From: a virus
Length of the DNA stretch: 11,186 bases
UHGV virus genome: UHGV-0120180
Strand: one strand, 5' to 3'
Part shown: positions 3,001 to 6,000 of the stretch, piece by piece
Layout of the letters: each line of letters starts with the position of its first letter
Numbering within the stretch: position 1 is the stretch's first letter
Made by a program: the position numbers

Positions 3001-6000
3001 GCGGTCTCTGGTGGAAAAGTTGTTATTCCCAAAGCGATGATTTATGACGCGGTGATTGAAACACTGGTGTCGCGGAAGGTTGTGGCAGATGAAGTAAAAG
3101 CCGGGGTAAGTATCACGTCGCCTGTTATCCGGAGTGCTGTTATTCAGAACGGGAACTTTCAGGTTGATTCTCAGGGTAACCTGAATATTGGTGGCCTTTT
3201 TAGTGTTACGTCGCAGGGGCAACTGACAATTCGTTACTCTAATCAGAATGTTGGGCTGGTGATCCGCAATGATAAAATTGAAGTTTATGACCAGAACGGA
3301 CGCCTGGCTGTTCGCATAGGCAGGTTAAGCTGAGCCGGAGGCTGACATTGGCAGAATATGGTTTTGCAATATACAACAGAAACAATGTTAATGTTACGGG
3401 CGTGCTTACTCCCATATTTTTCCTGGACAGGTTTACGGCGGAGTCGGGATCAAAAACGTATACGAATAAACCAGAAGGGAAAACATTGCAGGCAGTCTGT
3501 TCATTATTTCCGTGGAATAATGTATTTAAGGACCGGAAAGTACCGAAGATAACCATTAATGGCAATACGGTGACGTGGTCGAATCTTGAGCAGGGGATGG
3601 GGTCATATATTTATACATTCTGGGGGTGAGTTGTATGTATGGTTTAAGCATTACGAAACCAGATGGCAGCTTGTGGATAAGCCCGGGGTTTACGCCTCAG
3701 TGTCTGATCAATAAGGGAACTATTCCGGCGACTGAGAAGGCTTTTTTTAAAACATCAATCCCGTCAGGAAAAAGTTGTTTTTTCTTTATCAGAACAGAGA
3801 AAAAGGCCGATGTCATGTACACACATGAACAGATTGATGGATATCATGCCTTAAGGCTTCATCAAATTGTCAGGGGAACGAATCCTGGTGTTACGACTGT
3901 TTATGCTTTTGCGAATATGGTTACTCAACCTTCTGAGTATGGTATTGCCATGTATAACCCGTCGGGTGAGATGATTTACCATGGCGAAATGATGCTGCTT
4001 GACGCGAAGTTAATACCTGTTGATATCAAATTTGAAAAAGACCTCGGATATCCATGTGCAATTATGCCTGCACTGGTTGGGTATTATAACTGGCAGCGTA
4101 CACCTTATGACCGACCGATTTACACCACATCAACGGGGGCTACAGGAAATAAAATATATTCCTGTGAGCATTATTCCGGTCGTGCAACATGGGATATTCG
4201 GAAGCCGTATATAGATAAAGTGCTGGTCATTAATTCATCAATATATGACTGATATGCCTGTCAGTATGAATATTAAGTAATAAAACTAAATTCATCTTAG
4301 ATAATACGGGGTTATTTTATTATAGGAAAAGTCTAAAAATGAAACATGCCAGAATTATTTTTGCGTGCACAACTTTTGTGATGAGTTTTGTAGCAGCCCC
4401 TGCCTGTGCAGCACAAGGTGACAGTACAGTTTCTTTCGGATACGCTCATCTTCAGCTCTCTGGACTGAACAATTTTGTTAAGGATTTAAGTCTTTATAAT
4501 CTTGATACTTTTAACCGTTTTACAAACAGACACTACTTCAATTCAGGCGAATATGCAGATGCTTCTGTCCGGGGGCATGATGGCAAAGGCAAATCTCCTC
4601 AGGGGATGAACATCAGGTATCGTTATGAGATAACGGATGAGATTGGTGTTATAACATCTTTTACATGGGCGCGTTCTATGACTAATGCGCAGGCATTTAT
4701 TGATGTTAACCCAGGAGATGAATCCAGAGAGGTTAAAAATCCGGCAGCTTCAGGAAGAACAGATATCAGAGCGAATTACTGGAGCCTGTTAGCGGGTCCT
4801 TCGTGGCGGTTTAACGAATACCTCAGTGTGTATGCAATGGCTGGTATGGGGGTTGCAAAAGTCACCACTGACTTGAAAATTAACGACAATCTTAATCATG
4901 GTGCCGGTAGTTTTTCTGAAAGCAAGAGTACTAAAAAAACAGCACTTGCATGGGCTGCTGGTGCACAATTTAACCTGAATGAAAGTGTTGCTATGGATGT
5001 CGCGTATGAAAGCTCCGGATCCGGTGACTGGCGCACGAGTGGGGTTATTGTAGGCATTGGCCTGAAATTCTGAGTAATACCCGACAATATGTCATAACCC
5101 GCTGTGATAGCGGGTTTTTTGTTGCCCGTGCAGGGCAAAAATCGTAGATTATGCGCGGGTGCCTTTCGGCTGATGGCTGGAAGGTGAACCTGAAGGCCTG
5201 ATGTGGAAAGGCCCCGAGTCAACTTTAATGTTAACCCGAGGCCCTAACCATCATACCTTAAGCAAGTAGAAGGTTAGCGCCTCTCCACTCAGGAGGCAAG
5301 CGCTATGTCGCAAAAATCGCTCATCACCGTCACAATTTGTATGACGGTAATCTTCACCATCTGGATGTTACACGGCTCGTTGTGTGAGTTCCGGCTGAAT
5401 TTGTGGGGAGCGGAGTTTGCGGCGTTCTTACAGTGTAAGCAGTAGGAAAACCGCGACGGGGACAAAAGTCCCCGTCAACTGGTTGCTGAGGTTCAGCCGA
5501 TATGGCACCCGTTTCAGGTGAGAGAGAGGTGGTTTTAAGTCAGCCAGTGATGCGCGTAAGTACATTGATTCACATCGTGATGAGCTTGTTCGTCATGTGA
5601 AGGAGATGCGGGAGATTTCGCGTGAGGAGCAGCGTAACGCCACTAACCGCGACCGCACCGGACCAGAACGCCGCAAAGGGGATGTTTCGCCGGAGCAGTT
5701 CAGTGATGCGTTTGGTTTCCGTGGTGTGCAGTTTGGTAATTATGTGGAAGGTCCGCGTCGTCAGGCTGATTTGAACCGGGCTTATGACTCGCTGCATGAC
5801 CTGGCTGACGTGCTGAACGTTCCGACAAAAGCGCTTTCCCTGAATGGTCGTCTTGGGCTTGCTTTTGGTGCCCGTGGTAAGGGTAAGGCGGCGGCACACT
5901 ATGAGCCGGGTGAGGTGGCAATCAACCTGACAAAAGGTAACGGACCGGGGGCGCTGGCCCACGAATGGTTCCATTCACTGGATAATTATTTTGGTCGTTA

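Follow-up and report, generated by a model that had tools for sequence, protein, structure and literature searches.

To date, a single prophage hok locus has been assayed, hokW-sokW of Sakai prophage 5 (Sp5); Takada et al. (2021; PMC8621323) established it experimentally as a type I toxin-antitoxin pair. Their results pointed to assistance with lysis, with increased phage release after induction instead of a block to phage, and antitoxin activity was lost when the -10 element of the sokW promoter was mutated (PMC8621323). In the hok/sok system of plasmid R1, translation of hok depends on translation of mok, as summarized in the same paper (PMC8621323). Across the wider family, a survey of 1264 Hok peptides found M1, C16, T18, L30-C31-E32 and E41 conserved in more than 80% of sequences, and diverse Hok homologues were toxic in 42 of the 45 cases assayed (bioRxiv 10.1101/2025.08.07.668861). 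A literature search turned up no paper that assays the hok paralogue described below.

The window, which is the whole 11,186-nucleotide stretch of virus genome UHGV-0120180 that was analysed, belongs to a short-tailed Stx-phage-like (Sepvirinae) prophage. Positions 5122-5510 are very probably a single copy of a mobile cassette of about 390 bp, a type I toxin-antitoxin locus of the hok/sok type carried as a moron just downstream of lom. The toxin gene of this cassette occupies 5305-5445 on the plus strand, and the features around it are as follows.

5122-5150, plus strand: hok promoter predicted from sequence, with -35 TTGCCC (5122-5127), a 17-nt spacer and -10 TAGATT (5145-5150)
5157-5510, plus strand: predicted full-length hok mRNA, 354 nt, from a putative start at G5157 to a putative end at the end of the 3' fold-back element
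5157-5173, plus strand: 5' element (tac-like), GGGUGCC (5157-5163) and UCGGCUGA (5166-5173), pairing with 5493-5510
5201-5269, plus strand: leader ORF (truncated mok), GAAGG and then ATG, 22 codons (MWKGPESTLMLTRGPNHHTLSK), stop TAG at 5267-5269
5210-5243, plus strand: Sok-target hairpin of the leader, consensus helices 5 and 6; the other strand is the Sok stem-loop
5255-5269, plus strand: upstream arm of a long-range helix, overlapping the stretch complementary to the Sok 5' tail
5275-5305, plus strand: masking hairpin, UAGCGC/GCGCUA, over the hok start codon and its ribosome-binding site; UCUCC (5282-5286) pairs with GGAGG (5292-5296)
5455-5476, plus strand: hairpin directly 3' of the hok stop, GACGGGGAC-AAAA-GUCCCCGUC, consensus helix 16
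5479-5492, plus strand: downstream arm (dcb-like) of the long-range helix in the consensus fold
5493-5510, plus strand: 3' fold-back element (fbi-like), UCAGCCGA ... GGCACCC (5504-5510), in the minimum free energy (MFE) and consensus folds
5271-5299, minus strand: predicted Sok promoter, -35 TTGCCT (5299-5294), 17-nt spacer, -10 TAACCT (5276-5271)
5196-5264, minus strand: predicted Sok-like antisense RNA of about 65-70 nt, with an 11-nt free 5' tail (UGCUUAAGGUA), a 16-bp stem-loop and a UUUCC tail
5524-5525, no strand: junction of a 6,604-bp deletion, which starts 15 nt after the cassette and lies outside it

The gene at 5305-5445 is confirmed as a real member of the Hok/Gef membrane-toxin family, and its toxicity is predicted from that family. 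The initial annotation had described a 46-codon ORF with a strong Shine-Dalgarno sequence at exactly these coordinates, and this was borne out: the frame runs from ATG to TAG, encodes MSQKSLITVTICMTVIFTIWMLHGSLCEFRLNLWGAEFAAFLQCKQ and is preceded by AGGAGG at 5291-5296, 8 nt upstream of the ATG. The single transmembrane stretch and Hok C-terminal signature that it had also noted were found as one hydrophobic stretch at residues 4-24 approximately (Kyte-Doolittle 19-residue mean reaching 1.88 at residues 6-24) and as S25-L-C-E-F-R30 with E37-F-A-A-F41. The profile search that it had proposed gave 33.2 bits (E 4e-8) with Pfam HOK_GEF (PF01848), whose gathering score is 22, residues 8-44 aligning with positions 6-42 of the 42 in the profile. 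The peptide also matches PHROG 251 ('MokW-like host killing') over its full length (E 2.8e-24), and RefSeq WP_000078907.1 ('Hok/Gef family protein') and YP_009907859.1 ('MokW-like host killing') have exactly its sequence. All seven family-conserved residues of the survey are present, as M1, C12, T14, L26-C27-E28 and E37, at a constant offset of -4 from the survey numbering. Together with the curated Pfam match and the hok/sok RNA anatomy nearby, they uphold the original assignment to the type I toxins of the Hok/Gef family. Among the curated NCBIfam Hok models, HokA (NF007290) scored best, at 38.4 bits against a cut-off of 89, and the Hok subfamily model (NF007279) gave 22.7 bits against 73; since both scores lie far under the cut-offs, the toxin forms a distinct Hok subgroup and is not HokA. 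A search of the peptide against solved structures gave no match.

The length of the ORF is unremarkable by itself, as 20 ORFs of at least 20 amino acids overlap 4800-5900. It is the Pfam and PHROG matches, together with a codon-aware substitution pattern, that place 5305-5445 above chance. Compared with phage Sp5, the hok frame shows seven synonymous and no non-synonymous changes, and against more distant copies its pN/pS is 0.29-0.61, with values of about 0.7-2 in the two other frames. This pattern in the sequences indicates that purifying selection acts on the hok frame. The 46-codon frame was open in all 84 viral and genome loci fetched, with one early stop, at codon 46 of locus L061.

The toxin gene is already known, being present in RefSeq and in phage protein libraries. 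The initial annotation had presented it as overlooked, which holds for many GenBank phage records (e.g. VT2-Sakai and the LC6454xx Stx2a phages), where the same ORF is unannotated, but not for RefSeq/PGAP, which annotates it, nor for PHROG, where it is a member of group 251. At E <= 1e-5 the cassette matched 198 phage records and 1750 of 5426 complete E. coli genomes, at 2846 chromosomal and 18 plasmid places, with up to nine copies per genome. Because it is already listed and is carried by roughly one in three complete E. coli genomes, the gene is an ordinary find. Homology among P2-type, lambdoid, O-island and Sepvirinae copies begins at the -35 element (5122) and ends at 5510. In Sepvirinae Stx phages and prophages, the locus downstream of lom has the same position, an identical 46-residue peptide and cassette DNA that is 93-99% identical; it differs in having no 6.6-kb deletion after the cassette, and the length of its mok leader varies between copies. 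The placement of hok between lom and the giant gene, as first described, is correct for the window, where the 6,604-bp deletion removed the intervening genes and so brought hok next to the giant gene. It does not extend to any relative, in all of which five genes and the first 1136 or so giant-gene codons intervene; the cassette there is followed by orf66, four more genes and the full 2793-residue giant gene. The deletion junction was not seen in complete E. coli genomes, in phage records or in any of the fetched loci.

The sense RNA predicted from this cassette, 5157-5510, agrees with the transcript span of 5157-5515 named in the initial annotation. In 12 diverged copies, TTGC of the -35 element and TA.AT/TA of the -10 element are conserved in the hok promoter. 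A generic promoter and terminator scan listed neither this promoter nor that of the antisense RNA and found no plus-strand terminator after the cassette; the hok promoter went unlisted because its score, 4+4 of 12, is under the scan threshold. The scan did flag the inverted repeat at 5455-5476, though on the minus strand, and no clear intrinsic terminator lies 3' of the fold-back element. In relatives, the orf66 homologue downstream begins within that element, with its ATG at 5502. A scan of the whole window with Rfam at the gathering threshold gave no match, and a permissive scan matched the sok/hok-leader model at 5157-5316 (E 1.1e-7, score 40.7 against a gathering score of 59).

According to the computed folds, the full-length hok mRNA has both the 5'-3' pairing and the sequestered ribosome-binding site of hok/sok-type loci. 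The MFE fold closes the two ends (z = -7.0) by pairing 5157-5163 with 5504-5510 and 5166-5173 with 5493-5500. This end-pairing is kept in the 12 diverged copies (helices 1 and 2; 97% of cells paired), with changes that are one-sided (G-U) only, and 5157-5173 is the least variable block among 52 distinct copies. The masking hairpin corresponds to consensus helices 8 and 9 (94-100% of cells paired) and is present in the MFE folds of both the full-length and the 3'-shortened window RNA. Four of the 12 pairs in helix 7 (5255-5269 with 5479-5492) and four of the nine in helix 16, which is 100% paired, show compensatory changes. Overall, the consensus fold of the 12 copies comprises 104 pairs with 96% of cells paired. 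Compensatory changes occur in 18 of these pairs, against 10 +/- 1.9 in shuffles (0 of 500 reached 18) and 2-4 when partners were slid, controls that favour the consensus fold because it was derived from the same sequences used for pair counting. When the 3' end was removed in silico, 5255-5269 was partly freed: 5256-5259 re-paired with 5193-5196, and 5260-5271 were unpaired.

On the opposite strand, the ends of the Sok-like RNA were placed from promoter geometry and the stem-loop, and the candidate folds at -32.8 kcal/mol (z = -6.8). The -35 element of its predicted promoter overlaps the hok ribosome-binding site, and AGGTTAGCGCCTC in the promoter region is invariant in 12 of 12 copies. The target hairpin exists in a Sepvirinae type (GAGUCAAC...GUUAACCC) and a P2 type (GGAAAACA...UGUUUAACC); among the 12 copies, its columns that are paired in the consensus fold showed no compensatory changes. 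The most variable block of the cassette, 5247-5256, faces the predicted Sok 5' tail.

Several features of this locus are shared with hokW-sokW, which comes from the same phage group. In Sp5, a 5' GCGGGUGC is able to pair with a 3' GCACCCGC, and the toxin is a single-helix peptide with LCE-x-R. The Sok promoter there, TTGCCT-17-TAACCT, overlaps the region where hok translation starts, and the promoter predicted in the window matches it in both hexamers and in spacing. The sokW -10 element that was mutated is this same hexamer TAACCT, as comparison of primer YO-421 with the wild-type sequence shows. The two loci are nevertheless distinct. HokW is a 51-residue paralogue with 37% identity over 35 residues (E 1e-8), and its gene lies at 57.5 kb, on the opposite strand and close to the right end of the prophage; the primers of PMC8621323 have no match in the lom region, and the window contains no hokW. 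The window locus corresponds instead to Sp5 44701-44841, so that Sp5 carries both hok loci, the lom-adjacent one unannotated. A further candidate, 'hokX', is a different locus, at cysH-iap. Comparison with HokA of E. coli K-12, one of those suggested at the outset, gave 45% identity (E 4e-12), including WM..SLCE and AAFL.CK; the hokA/mokA/sokA locus lies at another chromosomal site and is disrupted by IS150 in K-12. Judged from the computed folds, the cassette would have in common with R1 hok/sok a stable structured mRNA locked by 5'-3' pairing, a leader antisense RNA, masking of the ribosome-binding site and a small membrane toxin. R1 Hok has 52 residues and is plasmid-borne, whereas the window Hok has 46 and is found in a prophage.

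The clearest departure from these systems is the mok frame. In R1, mok is a 70-codon frame that begins on the 3' side of the Sok-target hairpin and overlaps hok. In the subfamily to which the window belongs, the leader ORF begins at +45, on the 5' side of the hairpin, and in the window it stops short of hok; in hokW-sokW, by comparison, the upstream frame continues in frame into hokW. A canonical mok with its start 3' of the hairpin, as in R1, was rejected, as no ATG, GTG or TTG is found there in any copy. In the window, 35 nt separate the end of the leader frame from the hok ATG, and each of the three frames meets a stop between 5259 and 5276; the overlapping mok of hok/sok-type loci is thus absent. 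The start ATGTGG with GAAGG is kept in 11 of 12 copies, UC4224 having ATGTGA. From this start, some relatives whose toxin is identical have a mok of 60-61 codons that overlaps hok by 83 nt, and the existence of these relatives makes the state in the window derived or at least variable. One mok-intact allele is that of IMG/VR 2657245500_000006 (locus L034). Given the truncation, coupling in the window copy must be dispensable, weaker, or indirect, through a ribosome that stops at 5269, adjacent to the masking hairpin.

By analogy with R1, the cassette could work as follows. A weak promoter would give a hok mRNA of about 354 nt starting near G5157, with its 5' end paired to its 3' end, as the computed fold and covariation across copies suggest. 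The helix 5255-5269/5479-5492, likewise computed and supported by covariation, would cover the stretch of first antisense contact, and a local hairpin would bury the hok ribosome-binding site and start codon. With end-pairing, long-range helix and masking hairpin combined, the full-length RNA should be inert to both ribosomes and antitoxin. Slow 3' trimming would then break the end-pairing and expose the target, most of which in-silico 3' truncation frees. As in R1 and sokW, a short and unstable Sok-like RNA would pair with the leader and block expression while its synthesis continues. Once that synthesis stops, the 46-residue Hok would be made, its single helix would insert in the inner membrane and the potential would collapse, as expected from the family.

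Two explanations would deny the cassette an active toxin. It is very improbable that the ORF is a chance frame within a conserved non-coding RNA element, with the peptide made in no copy. Short ORFs are common in the region, and the block 5417-5436 (entropy 0.01-0.03) is conserved at the nucleotide level beyond coding need, which points to constraint on the RNA. A chance frame would, however, have to account for full-length significant matches to two independent protein profiles, for synonymous-biased substitutions specific to the hok frame and for the presence of the family-conserved Cys, Thr, Leu-Cys-Glu and Glu. A silenced relic, in which Hok is untranslatable with the truncated mok and the cassette persists as neutral baggage or a source of small RNA, in the manner of the inactivated hok loci of E. 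coli K-12, is less far-fetched, yet still unlikely. The leader stop at 5267-5269 keeps every frame of the Sok-target region from reaching hok, and there are relatives whose 60-61-codon mok is intact. Against decay, the Hok peptide is 100% identical between truncated- and intact-mok copies despite up to seven synonymous differences; promoter hexamers, end-pairing and masking hairpin are all kept; the cassette is untouched by insertion element or frameshift; and truncated-mok forms are the majority among the fetched Sepvirinae copies, which would be unexpected for a dead allele.

For an active cassette, the likeliest role, by analogy with hokW-sokW, would be a contribution to cell death or lysis at prophage induction, with prophage retention or exclusion of other phages as alternatives. 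That it serves instead in post-segregational killing on prophage loss or in abortive infection, and does not assist lysis, is possible but doubtful. In work cited in PMC8621323, R1 hok/sok maintains the plasmid and lowers the plating of T4; hok genes are four-fold enriched in prophages, and the same cassette lies at the edge of P2-type prophages by the attachment site, a typical position for accessory genes. On the other hand, the Hok survey found no enrichment of hok near defence systems, and hokW-sokW raised phage release instead of blocking phage. For the window locus, killing and abortive infection are guesses made at the level of the family.

A 'Hok/Gef family protein' CDS belongs in the annotation of the window at 5305-5445, ideally with the antisense RNA as well. 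The biological value of the locus is modest: the well-studied Sp5/933W-type phages carry two hok loci, one of which has been examined. Tentatively, Stx-type phages may carry in this cassette a second functional hok/sok module that was left in place in the hokW-sokW deletion study and that works without an overlapping mok, using a short leader ORF ending beside the masking hairpin or none; the variability at 5247-5256 would then reflect diversification of antisense specificity. If so, the second module may explain the merely two-fold phenotype of the hokW-sokW deletion, and the diversified block would stop up to nine copies per genome from cross-neutralizing one another. The mok-intact and mok-truncated alleles, which encode the same toxin, provide a natural series on how far translation of Hok depends on mok.

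The 46-codon ORF proposed in the initial annotation to encode a Hok/Gef-family type I toxin lies exactly where it was placed (5305..5445, + strand), starts with ATG and encodes MSQKSLITVTICMTVIFTIWMLHGSLCEFRLNLWGAEFAAFLQCKQ. A Shine-Dalgarno-type AGGAGG is located at 5291-5296, 8 nt ahead of the ATG. Twenty ORFs of at least 20 aa overlap 4800-5900, so the existence of the ORF by itself is weak evidence. The peptide displays the single hydrophobic stretch that had been described (19-residue Kyte-Doolittle mean up to 1.88, residues 6-24), followed by the C-terminal Hok signature, SLCEFR and then EFAAF. 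Profile searches assigned it to the Hok/Gef family, with 33.2 bits against Pfam HOK_GEF (E 4e-8; gathering score 22) and a full-length match to PHROG 251, 'MokW-like host killing' (E 2.8e-24). The seven residues reported to be more than 80% conserved in 1264 Hok peptides (bioRxiv 10.1101/2025.08.07.668861) all occur in it, with an offset that stays constant (M1, C12, T14, L26-C27-E28 and E37). Among known homologues, K-12 HokA matched at 45% identity (E 4e-12). The two curated NCBIfam Hok models scored far under their cut-offs (38.4 vs 89 and 22.7 vs 73), which rules out HokA identity and indicates a separate Hok subgroup. The family assignment is thus supported, and no further Hok-like motif was found within the window.

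Between the window and Sakai prophage 5 (Sp5, phage VT2-Sakai), the hok frame contains seven synonymous and no non-synonymous differences. In comparisons with copies that are more distant, pN/pS of this frame is 0.29-0.61, compared with roughly 0.7-2 for the other two frames. Each of the 84 loci taken from viral and genome collections keeps the 46-codon frame open, with a stop at codon 46 in one of them (L061). This synonymous bias and the open frame argue that the peptide is being maintained, and sequence comparison supports 5305-5445 as a Hok-family toxin gene under selection. Positions 5417-5436 within the coding region are almost invariant at the nucleotide level among 52 distinct copies, beyond what coding requires.

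A stretch of 521 bases around the ORF has matches in 198 phage records, nearly all from Escherichia and Shigella phages that are Stx-converting or related to such phages. With a more sensitive search, 1750 of the 5426 complete E. coli genomes were found to carry the cassette, at up to 9 places per genome (2846 chromosomal and 18 plasmid places in all). The same 141-nt ORF is annotated in RefSeq as WP_000078907.1, 'Hok/Gef family protein', with the same translation, and a RefSeq phage record names its product 'MokW-like host killing'. The view that gene callers miss this gene therefore holds for older records, since many GenBank phage entries leave the ORF without annotation, but not for RefSeq. 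Both gene and family are already known and annotated, and the window copy is a previously catalogued paralogue whose mok is truncated. An E. coli P2-type copy of the peptide was also seen in assemblies labelled Planococcaceae bacterium UBA3378 (L016, DEQA01000038.1) and Vagococcus sp. WN89Y (L018, NZ_JBQPOM010000071.1), probably through contamination or mislabelling.

The characterised hok locus of this phage group is hokW-sokW of Sp5 (PMC8621323). HokW, as deduced from the primers of that study, is a 51-aa MKQQKAM...DYESEK peptide (PMC8621323). The Sp5 record lists hokW as the 'gef homolog orf74', on the opposite strand at 57501-57713 (AP000363.1; 5002-5214, minus, in fetched locus L005), and the annotated 70-aa product is an in-frame N-terminal extension of HokW. 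The same record contains an unannotated 46-codon ORF between lom and orf66 (44701-44841; 4702-4842 in L003) whose peptide is identical to that of the window. Sp5 thus has two hok loci, and the window carries the lom-adjacent one. HokW and the window peptide share 37% identity over 35 residues, and the hokW primers have no match in the lom region. Identity of the window locus with hokW-sokW was rejected on the absence of these primer sites and on the length, location and strand of hokW. The frame upstream of hokW is the same as that of hokW and not -1 to it. Literature searches found no paper testing or naming the lom-adjacent paralogue.

The surroundings of more distant copies (75-84% identity) are quite different. 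In P2-type prophages (UTI89, ST131, O26 and others) the copy follows ogr at the prophage edge; in a lambdoid prophage it lies between J and a tail-fibre gene; a further setting is the O157:H7 urease island. For every one of these copies, similarity to the window begins near the -35 hexamer at 5122 and ends at GGCACCC (5504-5510), and these common limits across unrelated settings define a cassette of about 390 bp. The window matches its relatives up to 5525 and then, from 5524 onward, at a point 6,604 bp further along, which places the junction of a 6,604-bp deletion at 5524-5525. The deletion took away the orf66 homologue from its codon 9 onward, another four small genes and, at the N-terminal end of the 2793-aa giant gene (LPD5/LPD38), about 1136 codons. 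The remaining giant-gene ORF (5597-10492, 1631 codons) matches positions 1163-2793 of the 2793-position PHROG 616 profile. Microhomology at the junction amounts to 2 nt, and a GGTGAGAG motif lies close to each end; the junction was found in none of the 5426 complete E. coli genomes, 50,697 phage records and fetched loci. Because the deletion begins 15 nt past the cassette end, where copies in other contexts also diverge, the cassette itself is intact. The position noted earlier, between a lom-like moron and the giant gene, is correct for the window, but this gene order is particular to this degraded prophage and is due to the deletion.

Predicted promoters and RNA helices of the cassette
5122-5127 and 5145-5150, + strand: predicted hok promoter, TTGCCC and TAGATT with a 17-nt spacer; start near G5157
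5157-5163 with 5504-5510 and 5166-5171 with 5495-5500, + strand: end-pairing helices of the consensus fold
5255-5269 with 5479-5492, + strand: long-range helix, 4 compensatory pairs
5275-5305, + strand: masking hairpin; UCUCC is paired with the ribosome-binding-site GGAGG, and the stem extends to the A of ATG
5455-5476, + strand: hairpin after the hok stop codon, 4 compensatory pairs
5299-5294 and 5276-5271, - strand: predicted Sok promoter, TTGCCT and TAACCT with a 17-nt spacer

The predicted hok promoter is conserved in 12 copies and was too weak to be listed by a generic promoter scan. A hairpin resembling an intrinsic terminator, with a T-run (5096-5116), directly follows the lom-like gene (4339-5073) and separates it from this promoter. 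The 369-nt RNA 5157-5525 folds with z = -7.0, and its first 17 nt are paired with 5493-5510; such 5'-3' end-pairing is a hallmark of hok mRNA. The consensus fold derived from the 12 copies contains 104 pairs, and 96% of its cells are paired. Compensatory double changes were found in 18 of these pairs, a count to be read with the caveat that the structure was predicted from the very sequences used for it; column shuffles gave 10 +/- 1.9 (0 of 500 reached 18), and sliding the partners by 1-3 columns left only 2-4. Modelling thus supports a hok-type fold for the predicted mRNA. The Rfam 'sok' model (RF01794) matched 5157-5316 over its full length at 40.7 bits (E 1.1e-7), under the gathering score of 59. 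This 'sok antitoxin' match covers the stretch between the mRNA 5' end and the hok AUG; its strand is the hok-sense one, not the antisense strand where Sok would arise.

Of the 12 copies, 11 keep the leader start, GAAGG followed by ATGTGG at +45 (5201); the exception, UC4224, has ATGTGA. In several relatives, including five Sepvirinae-type loci with identical toxin, this start opens a true mok, a 60-61-codon frame that is -1 relative to hok and overlaps it by 83 nt. In the window, the leader frame (5201-5269) ends at TAG 5267-5269 after 22 codons, before hok, and between 5259 and 5276 each of the three frames is closed. These features could point to a cassette silenced in the window by loss of mok. 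However, leaders cut to 8-25 codons and stopping before hok are also found in Sp5, Lyz12581Vzw and the majority of fetched Sepvirinae copies, and the toxin is equally conserved with truncated or intact mok, which makes silencing an unlikely though real alternative. We read the truncation, from this conservation pattern, as tolerated rather than inactivating. The mok frame is polymorphic among cassettes with the same or nearly the same toxin (the window and fetched loci L034, L037, L041, L043, L057, L010 and L075).

On the minus strand, the predicted Sok promoter has the same two hexamers and spacing as hokW-sokW, and its identity to that validated promoter is supported at the sequence level. 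In sokW, a 'pro-less' mutant made with a primer altering the -10 hexamer TAACCT lost antitoxin activity (PMC8621323). In the cassette, AGGTTAGCGCCTC is invariant in 12 of 12 copies. The predicted antisense RNA starts about 7 nt downstream of the promoter (near 5263) and ends at about 5196. In its predicted fold (z = -6.8), a free 5' tail of 11 nt leads into a 16-bp stem-loop, which is followed by a UUUCC tail. A free 5' tail with a stem-loop is the Sok shape. The complement of the 5' tail is 5254-5264, a stretch tied up by the long-range helix as long as the mRNA is full-length. After in-silico removal of the last 30 nt, the 5' end folded locally and 5260-5271 became unpaired, while the masking hairpin was retained. 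The predicted folds fit the R1 scheme, in which the full-length form is inert and 3' trimming opens the RNA to Sok. Among the 52 distinct copies, the 5' end and the Sok -35/hok start region are almost invariant, and the most variable 10-nt block is 5247-5256 (entropy 1.11), where leader frames break and which faces the predicted Sok 5' tail. This variability would fit diversified antisense specificity.

The cassette would be expected to give sense and antisense transcripts, with 3' processing of the hok mRNA; the antisense RNA would repress hok, and the Hok peptide would depolarise the membrane. Induction of HokW is toxic, and HokW is neutralised by sokW RNA made from a promoter of its own, partly in an RNase III- and Hfq-dependent manner (PMC8621323). 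After mitomycin C treatment, sokW RNA is lost and HokW appears in the inner membrane, in a RecA-dependent manner; when hokW-sokW was deleted, growth arrest came about 40 min later and phage release fell by half (PMC8621323). By analogy, a contribution of the lom-adjacent locus to cell death or lysis on induction is favoured, and post-segregational killing or phage exclusion, the role originally suggested, is possible but less likely. The published hokW-sokW deletion strain kept the lom-adjacent second locus, and redundancy between the two may have blunted its phenotype.
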